DNA from: a virus
Taxonomy: Duplodnaviria; Heunggongvirae; Uroviricota; Caudoviricetes
Length of the DNA: 37,727 nt
Reading direction: 5' to 3' (one strand)
Virus record (IMG/VR): IMGVR_UViG_2909288124_000007
Coordinates: 1-37,727 of that record
The translations under genes were made by a program, and so were the position numbers. How positions within the stretch are numbered: the stretch's first letter is position 1; the number at the start of each line of letters is the position of its first letter. This document shows positions 1,782-8,069 of this stretch, piece after piece. Below the pieces are notes generated by a model. The model was not told the DNA's origin. It searched no databases and saw only the letters and a list, made by a program, of their open reading frames with translations.

Positions 1782-3035
1782 ATGAAAGTTGAAATGAATA
1801 CTAAACTTTTGGCCTATTTAAACAATGAGTTACATGGAGTGTGGGTAGATAGTGAAAATCGTAATATCCACATAATACTTAAATCAAGCCTTCCTATAAT
1901 TAAATCCGTCTGGTCAGGAGCACCTATCCACTTTTTGGTAGGTTTATCTACTAAAAATATACTAGTGATTGGGATGTTGATTGAAGATAATGTCGATAAT
2001 CCATTTTTACTAGCCTATCCACCAAGAGAGGCAGATGAAATTAAAGGGCTGGATTTGTTATTGTCAGGCGCTTATGATGGTATTCTATTATCATTTTTTG
2101 ACTCGCATACAATGCGTGTTATGGACCTGAAAATAAAAGTTTCGGAAAATTTACCGTGTGAATGTTTAAAAAAATTTTGTGCTAATTCATATTCTCTCAA
2201 TTCAGGATTTAGGGAAGGTAATGAAGCAATGGATGAATTCTGCAACAATGCTTTGACTGGTAACGAGAAAATAATTAGTCTGCCACTAAGTGTAATCGAT
2301 AAAAAATCTTACCTAGCAAGTGTTCATGAACCAAACGATACCGTATTAACATATGAATTTAGCGTCAGTGAAAACGGCTCTGAGGGATATGAGCAGGAAG
2401 CTCTTATATACCATGCTTTGCGGCAGGTCTTTTCAACGGAGGAAGTGTTTTTTTCTCCAGATATTATTGAGGGTAATAAAAAAAGAGAACTAGTTGATAT
2501 TCTTATTGTAGAAAATGACTATGTATTATCTATACAGTCTAAAGCATCATCTTTGATTGAAATGGGTTTGAAATCTCATGAAAAGCTTTGTAGCATGTAT
2601 AAGAAAAAAGCATTGCAAGGGATCGATCAGGTTAAAGGCGTTATCCCAATTCTAAATAATGATGTGGTTATTAATTATGACGGGAGGGAATGCTTAATAA
2701 AGCGCAGAAAGGGTATTTATCATTTAGTGATAATCTCAGATCTTGTTTTAGAGAAAGAAGGTGCTGAAAAGATTTATAACGAAATTAGCAACCTTAAAGA
2801 GTCAAAAGGGGCGAAAGTTTTAGTTATGAGCCTTGAAGGTCTTGTAAATTTTATAAGACTATCAAGATTAAATAAAAGAATGTTTTGGGCAATGCTGGAG
2901 GCTAAATACAAGTTCAGCATAAAAAACCGTACAATTTTAATTAGAGATATCGACTCTAGCCAAGAGAATAATCTACCATTACTTGCCACTGATCAATACC
3001 TATCACTTCTTCGAGGTACGGGAAAATTAAAATAA
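1782..3035 (+). CDS. hypothetical AT-rich cargo protein (417 aa); candidate defence/abortive-infection effector with a possible PD-(D/E)xK-like core
   Basis: Long uninterrupted ORF with AGGA upstream (alternative start ATG 1794); base composition visibly far more AT-rich than flanking phage genes; lies between int and the xis-containing operon, convergent with the latter; no recognisable phage structural or regulatory motifs. Confidence 0.6.
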   Translation: MKVEMNTKLLAYLNNELHGVWVDSENRNIHIILKSSLPIIKSVWSGAPIHFLVGLSTKNILVIGMLIEDNVDNPFLLAYPPREADEIKGLDLLLSGAYDGILLSFFDSHTMRVMDLKIKVSENLPCECLKKFCANSYSLNSGFREGNEAMDEFCNNALTGNEKIISLPLSVIDKKSYLASVHEPNDTVLTYEFSVSENGSEGYEQEALIYHALRQVFSTEEVFFSPDIIEGNKKRELVDILIVENDYVLSIQSKASSLIEMGLKSHEKLCSMYKKKALQGIDQVKGVIPILNNDVVINYDGRECLIKRRKGIYHLVIISDLVLEKEGAEKIYNEISNLKESKGAKVLVMSLEGLVNFIRLSRLNKRMFWAMLEAKYKFSIKNRTILIRDIDSSQENNLPLLATDQYLSLLRGTGKLK

Positions 3036-3236
3036 ATTGTATCAATGATACTGTTGCCACGTATCGAGACTGGCTTATGAACGGAAGGGTTTTCCAGCAG
3101 TTCAGCGACCGGAGCTGCACATCGATGCCGGATTGTGCCTGCAATTATGTACTTGGCTAAGAGGTGCTGCTGGCTCTGGATAGAATAACCCTAACGTCCA
3201 AAGAGCGCGCATTTTCATGTAAAAAAATAAATAGCT

Positions 3237-3262
3237 TGTCTGCTCTTGATACAGAGCAGACA
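3237..3262 (-). terminator. candidate terminator hairpin closing the leftward early operon (between convergent cargo gene and xis)
   Basis: Perfect 9-bp inverted repeat tgtctgctc / gagcagaca with 8-nt loop; on the minus strand it is followed by a T-rich tract (plus-strand A-run 3221-3227) after a short spacer. Confidence 0.4.
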
Positions 3263-3320
3263 GTCAGATCTGTTTGGCTTGTGCCATAGATGTGCCAGCT
3301 CACATTTGAGCTAATGTTTG

Positions 3321-3515
3321 TTACTCAATTACTCCTGTAAACCTGTATATCTTACGTGATGCCCATTTATTTGGGCAGGATTTAATATCAGGATCTGGAA
3401 AATCAGGCCGATATTTCTGACCAGTCCTCCGGTTTACACTGTTCCAGCGAAGCACCGTCGATATTGAAACGCCACAGAATTCGGCGACTTGTTTTGTTGT
3501 CATTAAGTTGTTCAT
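3321..3515 (-). CDS. AlpA-family excisionase / small HTH transcriptional regulator
   Basis: Translation MNNLMTTKQVAEFCGVSISTVLRWNSVNRR… is the characteristic AlpA/Xis HTH; GGAGG 7 nt upstream of ATG at 3515; start overlaps stop of upstream gene (ATGA). The longer annotated ORF (to 3599) is an unsupported N-terminal extension. Confidence 0.75.
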   Translation of the reverse strand: MNNLMTTKQVAEFCGVSISTVLRWNSVNRRTGQKYRPDFPDPDIKSCPNKWASRKIYRFTGVIE

Positions 3516-3859
3516 TGTTGACCCTCCTGTGGTTGTGCAGTTGAAAGACTCATGCCAGCGCGTTGTTTCCAGACGACCCAGCCGAGAGCCATATCCCACG
3601 CCATGTACTCGTTATCACCGTTTTTTGCTCTCCGACGATCGACTGTTTTACCGAAACGCTTTTCCATAAATAATTCATAGGCTGCGCGTTCATCTGGCTC
3701 AACTTCCAGAGATGCCAGTGCAATCCGTGCCAGTTCTAAATCATCTTCAAGCTCAGCGCGAATCTCAGCGAATGCACTCTGTGTTAAGGCGAACTCAATG
3801 CTCTGCACTTTATTCCGTGCGCGCTCAAGTAGTGCATGGTAGTTAATTTCGGTTGTCAT
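3512..3859 (-). CDS. hypothetical phage early protein (115 aa)
   Basis: ORF with GAGG-containing RBS; ATGA start/stop overlaps with both neighbours indicate an operon. Confidence 0.55.
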   Translation of the reverse strand: MTTEINYHALLERARNKVQSIEFALTQSAFAEIRAELEDDLELARIALASLEVEPDERAAYELFMEKRFGKTVDRRRAKNGDNEYMAWDMALGWVVWKQRAGMSLSTAQPQEGQQ

Positions 3860-4734
3860 ACCCCTACCTCTTCGAATTTTAATTCCAATTGATCACCCCA
3901 GATTTCACATGACTCTGAACACGAGCCGGTATCGAATCGCCTGGCCTGTACCATCGCCTGATACAAATTTCTGTAGTCGCTGTTGGCAGACATTCTGGCA
4001 ATTCCGTCAAGCGTCAGGTGACCACGGTACATAACGTCTTTACCTGTTCTGCGATGACCATCCCTGACGTGTTTGCCTGTAACCAGCTCATTAAAAACTC
4101 GCATCAGACCAGGTTCGTCTTTACATGCAAGCCCCAGCTTTTGCGTTGACTTTTTGATGCAGAAAACACAGTTCCCGAGATGCTCCGGGATTTGCAAATC
4201 AAAAGGTTGTTTTCGCCACCACCGGATAACATCCGACTTATCAAAATCTGACAGTTCGGCAAGATACCGGATGCCCGATTTCGGTTTCAGCCTACGGGGT
4301 TCGTCTGCACGAATACCCAGCCATGTGATGTAATTACCTCGCCCGAAATGGTTATCGCAGTATTTCGTGAAAGGGATGAGTTTTAGCCTGTCAGTACAGA
4401 ACGCGCCACCGATGTATGGCGTGCCGTACTTTTTAACCATGTCCATAAACGGTTTAAGTACCGGCATTCGCGTCTGAATATCCTTTGGCTCCCATTCTGT
4501 ATAACCATTTGGCTGCCCAAGCTCAGGATTGATATCGACCTGCAACACAGTTAGTGGTATGCCCCAGAACTTCACAACCTCCCGAATAAAGCGGTATGTC
4601 AGCGGATGTTCGCAACCGGTATCCATAAAGATGTAGCAGACGTTATTGCCAGCCTTTCTTTGTTCTTCCATCAGGTGAACAAGATATGCGGATGTTCTCC
4701 CGCCAGAAAAACTAACTACATGAGTTATGCACAT
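3856..4734 (-). CDS. phosphoadenosine phosphosulfate (PAPS) reductase family / PP-loop protein
   Basis: PP-loop-like motif VVSFSGGRTS near the N-terminus (SGGxDS-type with Asp replaced by Thr). Start taken at ATG 4734 (MCITHVVSF…) because the longer ORF would overlap the upstream gene by about 120 nt; start uncertain. Confidence 0.65.
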   Translation of the reverse strand: MCITHVVSFSGGRTSAYLVHLMEEQRKAGNNVCYIFMDTGCEHPLTYRFIREVVKFWGIPLTVLQVDINPELGQPNGYTEWEPKDIQTRMPVLKPFMDMVKKYGTPYIGGAFCTDRLKLIPFTKYCDNHFGRGNYITWLGIRADEPRRLKPKSGIRYLAELSDFDKSDVIRWWRKQPFDLQIPEHLGNCVFCIKKSTQKLGLACKDEPGLMRVFNELVTGKHVRDGHRRTGKDVMYRGHLTLDGIARMSANSDYRNLYQAMVQARRFDTGSCSESCEIWGDQLELKFEEVGV

Positions 4735-5261
4735 TTGCGTAATTCCGATAACTCGTTGAAGCGTTCCATAAACATCCCGTAGGCATGGCCCGGTGCCAGT
4801 GGAATAACTTTGAACATCTCTGTTGCCGGGATACCTTCCAGTACAGGCCATAAAGAGCCATCATCAAGCCCGAGATCACGGCGTTCGGTTGCCAGCATGA
4901 TGAGATCGGCATATTTCACAGGCGTGCTCATAACCGGGGGCAACTCGTATTTCTCACGGATTACTGCATCTATTTTTTCTTCCATCCGTTTATAGTCAGG
5001 AAGAAGGCGTTTCAGTGGTGCGGGGATGTCCTGGCAATACGCTTCTGTTGCATCATGCATTAACGCTTCAAAAGCAAATTCCTGCGGCACCAGCTGGCTG
5101 CAAAGCACCGCATGTTGGGCGACGCTGTAGAAGTGAGAAAGATGACCGGCAAAGCGGCAGATATTTGAAAGGGAAACCGCGATATCGTTAATCACGATGT
5201 CGTCTTTATTTATCCTGTCATAATAAAAATGCTTCCCGGAAAAAGTTTTAATAAATGACAT
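4725..5261 (-). CDS. HD-domain phosphohydrolase (YfdR-like 5'-deoxynucleotidase family)
   Basis: H…HD-type metal-binding signature (…AQHAVLCSQ… / …LMHDATEAY…); GGAG 6 nt upstream of ATG at 5261 gives a 178-aa product; length and context resemble CPS-53 yfdR as I recall it. Confidence 0.7.
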   Translation of the reverse strand: MSFIKTFSGKHFYYDRINKDDIVINDIAVSLSNICRFAGHLSHFYSVAQHAVLCSQLVPQEFAFEALMHDATEAYCQDIPAPLKRLLPDYKRMEEKIDAVIREKYELPPVMSTPVKYADLIMLATERRDLGLDDGSLWPVLEGIPATEMFKVIPLAPGHAYGMFMERFNELSELRKCA

Positions 5262-5388
5262 TTTGTTCTCCACGTATATGCGCTGCACCGCGCTGAATTT
5301 GGGTAAAAGGAAGCCCTCACCATCCGGTGATTATTGAGTTAATTACGTTTCCATAAATGCCCCTGCAGGGGCATTTGCAGTAATGAAA

Positions 5389-6213
5389 TCAGGCGGTGAA
5401 AGTACCAATAAAGGTTTCTACTTTGCTGTCTTTGAATTTCTCAACAAGCAGATCACGAAATTCGTTAGCCATATCTTCCTGCACCGCTTCCAGCTGAATA
5501 ATGCGCAGAACCAGTACAGGACGATCGCCAGTGATAATGCTGAGGCGTAATTTAAACGGACGTTCTTTCAGACCTTCAAACGGAACGCATTTAAATTCAA
5601 ATGCCACTGGCATAATGTCTTTGGTCTTCGCTTCGACAGATTCCATCAGGGAGCGTTTGCCGCTGAAGTCATTATCTTCAAAATCAGCGGTCTGGTTTGC
5701 TTCAATCGTGATTTTACGGATTGCCGCAGCCGCTTTTGTTGCCTGAATGGCGTCACCATTAGCATCAAAGCCCACAAGGTAGTCGGCCCAGTCTTCAATC
5801 CATTCTGCCAGTGATTTCTGGGAGTTACGCTCGCCGTTAACAGACAACAGGGCAGAGAACGGTGCTGTCTTTTTCAGTTTGAGAGTGGCGGTGTTATCTG
5901 CGTGACCTGGTTCATCAATAGTACCCAGGTTAAGCACACTGACGGCACGCATATTATCAGCATCGATAAAGCAGCGGGTGCCTTCATCTGCAAGATCTTT
6001 AGAATAACGGGTAAAGTCATCGATGCTGGCAGTGGAAAGCGCACCACGGAAACGGAAGCGATTTAAATTAAATTTTTCCAGATCATGAATGCGGAAATTC
6101 TCAGGCAATGCCACAGCATCGGCACCAATCTTACTGATAATTTCATTAACACCCTGAGCAGAAATAAGGGCATGGATTTGATTAATTGCGGTTGCGTCTA
6201 AGTTCTGAGACAT
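5389..6213 (-). CDS. YfdQ-like protein (DUF2303-like), function unknown
   Basis: 274-aa ORF directly upstream of the HD gene in the same operon; size and neighbourhood match the yfdP-yfdQ-yfdR arrangement of E. coli prophage CPS-53 (from memory). Confidence 0.6.
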
Positions 6214-6278
6214 AATAAGTCCTCACTATATAAAGATATTCAGTGATGAGATAAATAATCAGTTAATTAAGAACGATA

Positions 6279-6641
6279 TTAATGACCTGCTGCGCGTAGT
6301 TTTCCGTCAGGTTCACCGGCAAGAGTCAGTAATTGTCCCTGGTCTTCCTGCAGAATAGTCAGGCGACCACCGCGATTGACATACATCGGCGTTTCGGTGG
6401 TGTCTTCTTCGGAAATTTTCCCGCGGTTAGTCGGGCGAACATATGAGAGTTTGTGTTTGATTTTTACACGGTTCTCATCAAACGGTTCGATTTCCAGGTT
6501 GAGCGAGACCTTACCTTTGGTTTTCGTGTTCATCACACCGGAAGCGACTTCACTGAGAACTGCGCCGATTTTGGTTTCAAATACGCCGCCGTCCAGCTCC
6601 CCGATAAATGCCTGCACATCAGTACTGCGTTCGCTAGCCAT
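6279..6641 (-). CDS. hypothetical early protein (120 aa; YfdP-like), first gene of the leftward operon
   Basis: GAGGAG-type RBS upstream of ATG at 6641 (MASERSTDVQAF…); the longer ORF to 6872 is an unlikely N-terminal extension into the leader. Confidence 0.55.
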   Translation of the reverse strand: MASERSTDVQAFIGELDGGVFETKIGAVLSEVASGVMNTKTKGKVSLNLEIEPFDENRVKIKHKLSYVRPTNRGKISEEDTTETPMYVNRGGRLTILQEDQGQLLTLAGEPDGKLRAAGH

Positions 6642-7227
6642 TTTGCTGCTCCTCATCATATCGACCCTGCAAGGTCGGTTGGTTTCTCCACAAAACAGAG
6701 AAGAACACCTGCGGTGGCATCCGCCCGGATGGATTGGGTTATGAGCCCGTCGTCCGGTGATGCTATTCTCTGTTTTGTAAAAAGAGCGGTACCAGCCGGA
6801 AGCAAGTGTACAAACTGGTACCGCCAAAGCAGTGGCTGTTGTGGTGGGCTTGTCACTCAGGCGTATGGTCAACCTGACAATCCGGTGTCCTCAACGGGGA
6901 AAGAGTAACCCCGCCATACTTACCGCCGCGCCATTTCGCGGATTACCACAACGCTGAGAGCACTTAGCCTGTTACGGCACCACACTTTGTCGCGGCTCCA
7001 TAAATGCTCTCATCGTTGCACCCTGGTCTCTTCCTAGGTGTCAAACCGAATCGCCACGCTGGTTAGGCGTCTTATCAGCATCATCATTGACTTGCACATT
7101 CCGGCTACCTGGTTTGTTTGCCCGAGCAAGGAGTGGATTGTCCCCTTTAACGTCACCAGACCGCTAACGACGCATGTGCCATACGCCGTGTTACAACCAA
7201 ATTTTGTTTTAATCTTGCCTGTGCCAT

Positions 7228-7262
7228 GTTTCTTTTAGATACATTATGTATCTCATAGGTAC
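7228..7262 (-). promoter_or_regulatory. leftward early promoter (pL-like) overlapping operator palindromes
   Basis: On the minus strand: TTGACA (plus 7255-7260), 16-nt spacer, CATAAT; the spacer/-10 overlaps palindromes ATGTATCtcataGGTACAT (7236-7254) and AGATACAttaTGTATCT (7228-7244). Confidence 0.55.
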
Positions 7263-7263
7263 A

Positions 7264-7286
7264 TTGTCAAGTATAAAAAAACCTGC
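7264..7286 (-). terminator. rho-independent terminator downstream of the repressor gene, immediately before pL
   Basis: Minus-strand hairpin ACCTGC-ttcg-GCAGGT followed by a 7-T run (plus-strand A-run 7264-7270). Confidence 0.6.
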
Positions 7287-7309
7287 CGAAGCAGGTTCAT
7301 AAATATTGA

Positions 7310-7984
7310 TTAGGCCTTTATTGTGTATCTTCTTGGTTTTCCCGAGAAAATCACTGTACCAATTATAGAGCAATTACCGTTAATCTTAATGTAAGGCTCA
7401 GGCCAGTTTGGGTTTAATGCTTTGAGATAACGCTGTGTTCCATCTTCTATCAACCGCTTGAAGGTGGTTTCGCCTGAATCGTGCATCAATGCAATAACGT
7501 CGTCACCGTGGCAGGCAGGGACTTCAGGATCTACAAAAATCATGTCTCCCGGGCGGTACTCATCAATCATTGAATCACCAATCACCCGCAAGATATAAGT
7601 CATTTCGCCACAGGGTACAGGGCAGGGATAAGTTTCTGCTGTGCTCAAATCAACCTCAGAATAGCCAACTTCTTTCCATGCTCCGGCCTGTACCCATGAT
7701 ATGACAGGGACTAACGTTATTTGTTTGTTAGTAATTGAAACATCAGGTTTTTTTGTGATGTTTGTTGTCTGGTGTTCTTGATCAAGCCATCCGACAGGCA
7801 GGTCGAAACATTTTTCGATGTGCCGTGCCATGCTGTCACCGATATTTTTAGTAGCACCATCTCCCATAAACCTGCTGGTCTGGGTTGGCTCGCGATCAAT
7901 CATGGTGGCAAAGGAAGAATTCCCGCCAACACCATCTCTCAGTTTTCTGGCGTTAGACCGCCGGATGTCATGGACTGTTTTCAT
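7310..7984 (-). CDS. cI-like repressor (N-terminal HTH, C-terminal S24 LexA-type peptidase domain)
   Basis: 224-aa ORF; C-terminal region (…VIGDSMIDEYRPGDMIFVDPE…) is typical of the S24 autoproteolytic domain; divergent from a cro-like gene with operators between them. Confidence 0.85.
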   Translation of the reverse strand: MKTVHDIRRSNARKLRDGVGGNSSFATMIDREPTQTSRFMGDGATKNIGDSMARHIEKCFDLPVGWLDQEHQTTNITKKPDVSITNKQITLVPVISWVQAGAWKEVGYSEVDLSTAETYPCPVPCGEMTYILRVIGDSMIDEYRPGDMIFVDPEVPACHGDDVIALMHDSGETTFKRLIEDGTQRYLKALNPNWPEPYIKINGNCSIIGTVIFSGKPRRYTIKA

Positions 7985-8000
7985 AACGAAATTAAAACCT

Positions 8001-8069
8001 TTGTACCGATAGGGTACAAGTATCTTGAAGGTTCATCTCAATCATGTAATATGTATATCGGAGGTACAT
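8001..8069. promoter_or_regulatory. rightward operator/promoter region (OR/PR-like) between repressor and cro
   Basis: Palindrome TTGTACCgatagGGTACAA (8001-8019) and related ATGTATAtcggaGGTACAT (8051-8069); candidate PR -35 TTGAAG (8025-8030) and -10 TAATAT (8047-8052). Confidence 0.6.

Follow-up and report, generated by a model that had tools for sequence, protein, structure and literature searches.

The yfdPQR gene cluster has been described as common in the early-left operons of lambdoid phages, where it occurs with or without a recombination module (PMC12315714). Its best-known setting is CPS-53 (KpLE1), a cryptic prophage of Escherichia coli K-12 with the gene order yfdP-yfdQ-yfdR-yfdS-yfdT-(ypdJ)-torI. 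K-12 YfdR is reported to bind DnaA by way of Phe46, in moderate competition with DiaA and DnaB, and initiation at oriC is inhibited when yfdQRT or yfdQRS is present in multicopy (PMC4776307). The same protein is reported to be a weak phosphatase of deoxynucleoside monophosphates (dNMP) whose nucleotide affinities are much below those of YfbR, and deletion in K-12 gives no phenotype under normal growth (PMC4776307). Phage lambda, for its part, encodes NinC (orf-290) in the nin region of its rightward pR operon, between ninB and ninD, and PP-loop proteins of the same fold class (SspD, DndC and BrxP) belong to DNA phosphorothioation systems. In Vibrio phage 44E38.1 the p0018 gene product, P0082, is a fusion of a PAPS domain to Dam and is reported as part of an anti-Dnd determinant, p0018 being one of two genes whose transfer let a sensitive phage overcome host Dnd (bioRxiv 10.1101/2021.05.05.442762; cited as Piel et al. 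2022 in PMC13551039). Here we describe a leftward operon of six genes, at positions 3321-6641 of a 37,727-nucleotide stretch of DNA from a virus of the Caudoviricetes (IMG/VR record IMGVR_UViG_2909288124_000007, analysed at full length and called the window below), in which yfdP, yfdQ and yfdR are followed by a relative of NinC, a yfdT-like gene and an excisionase gene, xis.

This early gene block is common among lambda-like prophages of E. coli and has already been annotated. We consider it the early-left accessory operon of an SfV/cdtI/Stx2c-type lambdoid prophage, made of separate swappable modules and driven from pL, a reading to which we give a probability of about three in four. The block of 3.3 kilobases is ~99.7% identical in E. 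coli genomes; 271 of the 5,426 complete genomes cover at least 80% of its length, and parts of it are present in 3,065. RefSeq (PGAP) already annotates it, within a prophage that adjoins yjjG, as yfdP, yfdQ, yfdR, a "PAPS reductase domain-containing protein" and a hypothetical protein. Among phage records, coverage of the block does not exceed 65%. The yfdP-yfdQ-yfdR part is 96–98% identical at the DNA level in SfV, cdtI, mEp460, 2H10, ST64B/LLS and Stx2c phages. Phages cdtI and Stx2c also have the leader and repressor of the window, and the xis end is common to SfV, mEp460, cdtI, 2H10 and Stx2c phages, which carry other genes between yfdR and xis. CPS-53 keeps the same gene order and orientation relative to its excisionase, with yfdS (DUF551) in place of ninC; its TorI is unrelated to the window excisionase (no significant BLASTP match), and CPS-53 is cryptic whereas the window prophage is intact, with repressor, leader and integrase.

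All six genes that the first-pass annotation had placed in this operon are present as co-directional minus-strand open reading frames (ORFs) in the window ORF listing (Table 1), and the three overlaps that it reported are exact. TCAT on the plus strand at 3512-3515 and 3856-3859 reads as ATGA on the coding strand, and the stop codon of yfdR (4725-4727) lies within a 10-nucleotide overlap, 4725-4734, with the downstream ninC, which begins at ATG 4732-4734. Its picture of a tightly packed operon applies to three of the five junctions and fails at the other two, where yfdP and yfdQ are separated by 65 nucleotides and yfdQ and yfdR by 127; K-12 has identical 65- and 127-nucleotide spacers and an identical 10-nucleotide overlap after yfdR. 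Profile searches gave a strong PHROGs family match for each of the six proteins, three to named families (excisionase, 9e-35; PAPS reductase, 8e-92; dNMP phosphatase, 2e-108) and three to unnamed ones. Together with direct comparison they bear out the proposed assignments to YfdP, YfdQ, an HD-domain YfdR, a PP-loop protein of the PAPS reductase family and an excisionase.

The fourth of these proteins can be named more closely. The "PAPS-reductase-like" protein is, by sequence, a relocated orthologue of lambda NinC, with which it shares 79% identity over 285 residues (499 bits). Lambda NinC begins MINVVSFSGGRTS, carries the same SGGRTS, and has the conserved CxxC and CxxxC cysteines of the window protein. 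Across an alignment of 20 NinC homologues, the lowest at 51% identity, the invariant positions include SGGR[TS]S, Cys113, 126, 189, 192, 272 and 276, a DTGxEH segment and a W-G-R-DE-R segment. The motif that had been taken for an alteration of SGGxDS is thus real but is the signature of the family. NinC has the Rossmann-like adenine-nucleotide alpha-hydrolase fold of the PP-loop ATP pyrophosphatase superfamily, and the canonical SGGxDS/T aspartate is absent from it, the Thr/Ser found there being invariant in the family; since threonine replaces the PP-loop aspartate, ATP pyrophosphatase activity is not assured. A start at the upstream ATG 4851 (331 residues) was considered and rejected, because all homologues start at the position equal to 4734.

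What differs from lambda is the place of the gene. Both phages encode NinC among their early genes, but the window ninC does not lie between ninB and ninD/ninE as in a nin region; it follows yfdR in a leftward operon, and ninC is absent from the nin-like region of the window. We examined 80 IMG/VR loci that encode NinC relatives, with neighbours located by tblastn. Copies 94–100% identical to that of the window nearly always follow yfdR, and ninC is found after yfdR only at identities of at least 94%. The clade at 91–93%, of the Stx2a/Ss-VASD type, comes after divergent yfdP and yfdQ (58 and 52% identity) without yfdR, or next to none of these genes. In the 79–81% clade the order is ninB-ninC-ninD-ninE as in lambda, sometimes ninB-dam-ninC, and a homologue at 54% identity lies in the nin region of four other lambdoid prophages. 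The slot after yfdR is variable too when seen from the other side: K-12 has yfdS (DUF551) and yfdT there, cdtI a 120-residue gene and a DUF551 gene, and 2H10 an Eae gene and a 206-residue gene, the joint of the swap being exactly the 10-nucleotide overlap, which is present in K-12 too. As judged from these sequences, the adjacency of the HD and PP-loop genes is one recent recombination event that spread and not a conserved functional pairing, and the operon is a mosaic of separate swappable modules rather than a dedicated nucleotide pathway.

This bears directly on the proposal of the first-pass annotation that the HD phosphatase and the PP-loop enzyme act jointly on the nucleotide pool. Cooperation of YfdR and NinC early in infection, whether to alter the pool of deoxynucleotides or to make a modified nucleotide or DNA base, would be in keeping with the overlap of the two genes, which permits translational coupling, with the nucleotide binding expected of both proteins by fold or family, and with the recurrence of the arrangement in the 271 E. 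coli genomes and in many IMG/VR contigs. Those co-occurrences are, however, all between near-identical copies; more distant ninC genes stand beside ninB, ninD or dam without an HD gene, the same overlap joins K-12 yfdR to the unrelated yfdS, and the reported nucleotide affinity of YfdR is low (PMC4776307). Because the two genes are neighbours only at such high identity and the partners of yfdR vary, a joint nucleotide-pool or hypermodification pathway is not supported, and we regard it as quite unlikely. A second alternative takes the database name and PHROG category of NinC literally: ninC would be an auxiliary metabolic gene for a true PAPS/APS reductase and would enhance sulfate assimilation by the host. 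NinC does match PF01507 (PAPS_reduct) at 1e-8 and has a DTGxxHPxTYxFI segment in common with PAPS/APS reductases. The Pfam match, though, is confined to residues 5-71, that is, to the N-terminal ~70 residues, and the protein scores 20.2 bits against the CysH equivalog NF002537, the cut-off of which is 154. At its C-terminus an invariant GSCSESCE replaces any ECGLH-type catalytic motif. With the CysH model failed and no ECGLH C-terminus, a true role in sulfate assimilation is unlikely for NinC; relatives of NinC are moreover recurrently fused to DNA methyltransferases, and SspD matches it better than any reductase model, all of which makes the reductase reading very improbable.

A third possibility concerns the other half of the operon, where yfdP-yfdQ-yfdR could be an unrecognised recombination or replication module that replaces Red/Erf in the pL operon. 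The block occupies the place of exo/bet/gam, and the phage has neither an N gene nor a recognisable recombination module (no known recombinase among the ORFs examined). The reported sensitisation of K-12 to methyl methanesulfonate and H2O2 by yfdQ deletion (cited in PMC4776307) and the deposition of a YfdQ homologue as a 36-chain assembly would also fit. On the other hand, the yfd cluster coexists with a complete recombination module in ArgO145, and the authors of that study judged a recombination role unlikely (PMC12315714). Genes of the yfd type likewise accompany ERF and YqaJ in Vibrio phage 44E38.1 and a recombinase and nuclease in Ss-VASD, and the YfdQ model has no similarity to known annealing proteins. 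We therefore think such a role quite unlikely.

The reading of the region as an early-left operon of independent modules has its own weak points. Terminator-like hairpins stand in the leader of a phage that has no N gene, and read-through from pL to yfdP is assumed. The PP-loop of NinC is without its usual aspartate (SGGRTS against SGGxDS). Lambda can form plaques on laboratory hosts without ninC (PMC10695390); this is expected of an accessory counter-defence gene and equally compatible with other roles. The effect of the K-12 proteins on DnaA was seen on multicopy plasmids only, and its authors allow that it may be an overexpression artefact (PMC4776307). In the Vibrio experiment two phage-specific genes were transferred together, one of them encoding the PAPS-Dam fusion, so that the PP-loop domain was not isolated (bioRxiv 10.1101/2021.05.05.442762). 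Finally, the YfdQ model gave no informative fold match in a Foldseek search of the PDB.

The yfdP-yfdQ-yfdR core is conserved and is the part of the operon whose sole experimental activity comes from near-identical proteins of K-12. Identities to the CPS-53 proteins are 99, 100 and 97% for YfdP, YfdQ and YfdR, and the window keeps the yfdQ-yfdR-yfdT combination. YfdQ matches PF10065 (DUF2303) over profile positions 2-269 of 269, that is, over its full length. YfdR is orthologous to the K-12 protein over all 178 residues, has its metal-binding residues H50, H69, D70 and D119 (H...HD...D) intact, and aligns at these HD residues with the HD protein Atu1052 (PDB 2gz4, E 9e-12). It scores only 20 bits against the curated YfbR equivalog NF003009 (cut-off 122) and stays below the Pfam cut-offs for YfbR-like (24.8 against 25.9) and, likewise, for HD_3, so by sequence it is a relative of the YfbR 5'-deoxynucleotidase and not a YfbR orthologue. 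The binding of K-12 YfdR to DnaA and the block at oriC fit an early host-takeover role of this core. A homologue of YfdQ is present in the PDB (entry 9o7m, "YfdQ protein", 274 residues, E 2e-44, nearly full length); its 36 chains imply a large homo-oligomer. This entry was not among the returns of the Foldseek search of the PDB with the predicted YfdQ structure (predicted local distance difference test, pLDDT, 76), in which the best E value was 0.075 and no fold was assignable, and literature searches on 9o7m and DUF2303 found no paper describing the deposited structure. Sequence searches of the PDB gave no relative of YfdP or YfdT.

For NinC the comparison leads toward DNA. Its best PADLOC match is SspD (3.7e-15; residues 5-150 on profile positions 2-123 of 277), followed by marginal matches to BrxP (3e-4) and DndC (7e-3). 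Like these proteins NinC is of the PP-loop fold class, and it is cysteine-rich, as expected for the iron-sulfur (Fe-S) or persulfide chemistry. The likeness has limits, in that only half of NinC matches SspD and the motif aspartate of SspD, DndC and BrxP is a threonine in NinC. The five other operon proteins and orf417 (a gene between integrase and xis) gave no SspA/B/C or DndA/B/D/E match in PADLOC, the rest of the window ORFs having been checked only in part, with Pfam; YfdP, YfdQ, YfdT and orf417 had no PADLOC match of any kind. An exhaustive search for NinC relatives (E <= 1e-3) returned 1,650 clusters at 50% identity, and among ten long family representatives seven are fused to N6-adenine DNA methyltransferases, either Dam (PF05869) or D12 (PF02086), in both domain orders. 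Fusions arising independently like this point to DNA as the target of NinC, or at least to a role in a process that it shares with DNA methylation. The N-terminal domain of the Vibrio protein P0082 is 55% identical to window NinC over 96% of its length and has all the invariant residues, and Vibrio phage 44E38.1 also carries yfdP and DUF2303 genes in a leftward operon. Its PP-loop domain is fused to Dam, whereas the window phage has a separate, stand-alone phage Dam methyltransferase at 11205-11891 (+) (PF05869, 1e-45); NinC and Dam, fused elsewhere, are thus separate genes in opposite early operons here. From these comparisons a role in DNA modification or counter-defence, which had been put forward for the HD and PP-loop genes together, is defensible for NinC on its own, where the fusions, the SspD match and the Vibrio homologue speak for it, and not as a joint role. 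Tentatively, and well short of an even chance, the NinC family might consist of DNA-directed PP-loop/Fe-S enzymes that install or mimic a sulfur-containing or other adenylation-dependent DNA mark and, with phage Dam, evade restriction of the Dnd/Ssp type. If this were true, the move of ninC out of the delayed-early nin region and into the pL operon would serve to bring on the protection sooner.

Expression from pL, which had been proposed for this operon, is supported at one end and complicated at the other. A promoter downstream of the repressor gene is the layout of lambda. In the window the best sigma-70-like site between 3000 and 8400 lies directly after the terminator hairpin of cI (7279-7298), points leftward and has 11 of 12 matches (Table 1). 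Operator-like 20-nucleotide repeats occur at 7245-7264, 7225-7244 (75%) and 8050-8069 (85%), the first two overlapping the candidate promoter and the third lying between cI and the rightward genes; repressor would be expected to bind them. A leftward sigma-70 promoter is thus combined with operators shared with the pR/pRM region, as far as sequence evidence goes, and since repeats at pL and between cI and the rightward genes match an OL/OR arrangement, control of the operon from pL is plausible. The N gene and nutL that follow pL in lambda-type operons are not found: the ORF listing has no N-like ORF between 6642 and 7240, and a leader of ~600 nucleotides, non-coding, structured and with terminator-like hairpins, intervenes between candidate pL and yfdP.

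We infer that transcription of the operon most likely starts at the repressor-controlled pL just downstream of cI. The transcript would cross the leader and then yfdP, yfdQ, yfdR, ninC, the yfdT-like gene and xis. The yfd core would serve early host takeover via DnaA, the variable slot after yfdR would be filled by the relocated NinC orthologue, and this protein, of the APS-reductase/SspD/DndC lineage, would most likely provide a DNA modification or anti-restriction function partnered with adenine methylation. The operon would be closed by xis beside the integrase, and a hairpin downstream of xis is the probable end of the leftward transcript (Table 1).

The leader itself contains a conserved structured element, at ~7003-7189, which recurs at 78–90% identity in unrelated phages and is always co-oriented with the neighbouring genes. 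Copies are located after the repressor in lambdoid mEp390, between trnI and ban in P1, P7 and D6, and upstream of a transfer RNA (tRNA) gene for Arg in podoviruses like phiV10, SPN1S and epsilon15; in all of these the single-stranded blocks are conserved and the stems variable. An RNAalifold consensus of nine sequences has 29 pairs, with 98% of cells paired as compared with 29–44% when the 3' partners are slid. In the same set compensatory changes occur in seven pairs (16 cells), which 0–4 of 500 shuffles reached, and a set of 20 sequences gives eight covarying pairs. This larger set also suggests a possible alternative, a long-range pairing of the invariant segments GCACAU and AUGUGC. An invariant 19-mer, GGTAGCCGGAATGTGCAAG, occurs once in the window, and at least 120 IMG/VR contigs, in which 95 different cores are represented, carry it as well; as the family set was gathered by exact match to this 19-mer, its invariance there is partly circular. 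In 32 of the contigs the 19-mer is followed by yfdP, in 34 it is preceded by the repressor of the window, in 25 it is followed by tRNA-Arg and in 16 preceded by a tRNA with a CAT anticodon. Rfam 15 has no match in the operon or the leader (whole window at gathering threshold; 3200-7400 at E <= 1). Two explanations for the element were rejected. A degenerate tRNA was considered on account of the tRNA genes that adjoin the element in P1 and in phages like phiV10, but ARAGORN finds no tRNA and the helices do not form a cloverleaf. Nor does the element fit an antiterminator of the HK022 put type, as it has no similarity to the HK022 region compared, is present in a single copy and not as putL plus putR, and is ~3x longer; HK022 put offers a functional analogy only. 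Farther from the promoter, the leader folds unusually well at 6640-6935 (-) (z = -3.3); besides the terminator-like hairpin with its U-run (Table 1), this part has a long ACAAAACAGAGAA/UUCUCUGUUUUGU stem and, immediately upstream of the ribosome-binding site of yfdP, a further hairpin, in what may be an attenuator arrangement. A cis-acting antiterminator, an attenuator, a processed stable RNA and an element described outside Rfam are the candidates for the leader RNA as a whole.

Table 1. Features of the early-left operon, its leader and its candidate promoter region (positions in the window).
Feature	Position	Strand	Description
Terminator-like hairpin downstream of xis	3237..3262	-	10-bp stem, then AGCTATTTAT
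Excisionase gene (xis)	3321..3515	-	64 aa from ATG; winged-helix/helix-turn-helix; phrog_1553 "excisionase", 9e-35
yfdT-like gene	3512..3859	-	115 aa; 72% identity over 79 aa to K-12 YfdT, E 3e-41; phrog_660
ninC homologue	3856..4734	-	292 aa; PP-loop/PAPS-reductase fold; SGGRTS; six conserved cysteines
yfdR	4725..5261	-	178 aa; HD-domain phosphohydrolase; 97% identity to K-12 YfdR; phrog_318, 2e-108
GC-rich hairpin in yfdQ-yfdR spacer	5355..5378	-	AAATGCCCC-TGCA-GGGGCATTT; without U-run; read by eye
yfdQ	5389..6213	-	274 aa; DUF2303; 100% identity to K-12 YfdQ; PF10065, 4e-93
yfdP	6279..6641	-	120 aa; 99% identity to K-12 YfdP; phrog_204, 1e-49
Terminator-like hairpin in leader	6778..6825	-	GGCGGTACCAG...CTGGTACCGC, then TCTTTTT; predicted
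Conserved structured RNA element	7003..7189	-	Transcribed in operon direction; single copy in window
Two adjacent 20-nt operator-like repeats	7225..7264		ATGTA-N9-TACAT type; palindromic; overlap candidate pL
Candidate pL promoter	7243..7270	-	TTGACA, 16-nt spacer, CATAAT; 11/12 matches

At the distal end of the operon two labels can be revised. The gene that had been called a 115-residue unknown encodes a homologue of K-12 YfdT, and the description of the last gene product as AlpA-like is loose. The xis product matches phrog_1553 over residues 1-64, its full length, and has no match to AlpA (PF05930) at E <= 0.01, Pfam giving only sub-threshold matches to HTH_23, HTH_17 and MerR; the integrase gene lies nearby at 386-1609, and phages cdtI and 2H10 have annotated excisionase genes of 64 residues in the corresponding place. 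By eye, a GTG-extended xis product read from 3516-3599 (-), at the 3' end of the yfdT-like gene, starts MGYGSRLGRLETTRWHESFNCTTTGG... and resembles the N-terminus of K-12 YpdJ, MGYDSRLDHLAATSWYPFFNNVTTRG...; most likely the two come from an alternative reading frame of the 3' end of yfdT, which is conserved, and do not represent a real protein. Between integrase and xis, orf417 (1782-3035, +; 417 residues) has no Pfam or PADLOC match and matches, over its full length, only the unnamed phrog_30399, other phages carrying different genes in this place. A PD-(D/E)xK-like D...QxK segment (ELVDILIV...SIQSK) is visible by eye, and the gene may be a moron or a defence gene at the att-proximal end.

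Elsewhere in the window, Rfam at gathering threshold matches isrK at 9227-9303 (63.7 bits) and C4 antisense RNA at 9328-9415 (82.8 bits), both on the plus strand and inside or beside an Ash-family ORF at 8867-9703. From its sequence, 9227-9415 is an immunity module of the c4-antirepressor kind found in P1/P7, here within a lambdoid prophage. The rightward operon further encodes a KilA-N protein at 12620-13429 (+) and a DUF968/HNHc protein (3.5e-81) at 13431-14426 (+), with a PerC-like YfdN and a DnaD-like helix-turn-helix replication protein upstream of them.

As far as gene content is concerned this analysis adds little, since RefSeq already has the genes with their order and names, and the literature discusses the yfdPQR cluster. 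It does offer a useful clarification, namely that the "PAPS reductase" of these prophages is lambda NinC in a new place and that its odd PP-loop motif is a family signature. The pairing of HD and PP-loop genes being a recent mosaic accident, experiments should treat the genes separately. Lambda orf-290 has been an orphan for 40 years; given the repeated fusions of its relatives to adenine methylases and the anti-Dnd result in Vibrio, NinC is a tractable candidate for the role of a DNA-modification or anti-restriction enzyme in phages. The leader RNA, supported by covariation, is the least-described object of the neighbourhood, and could explain how a lambdoid phage without N expresses its early-left genes.

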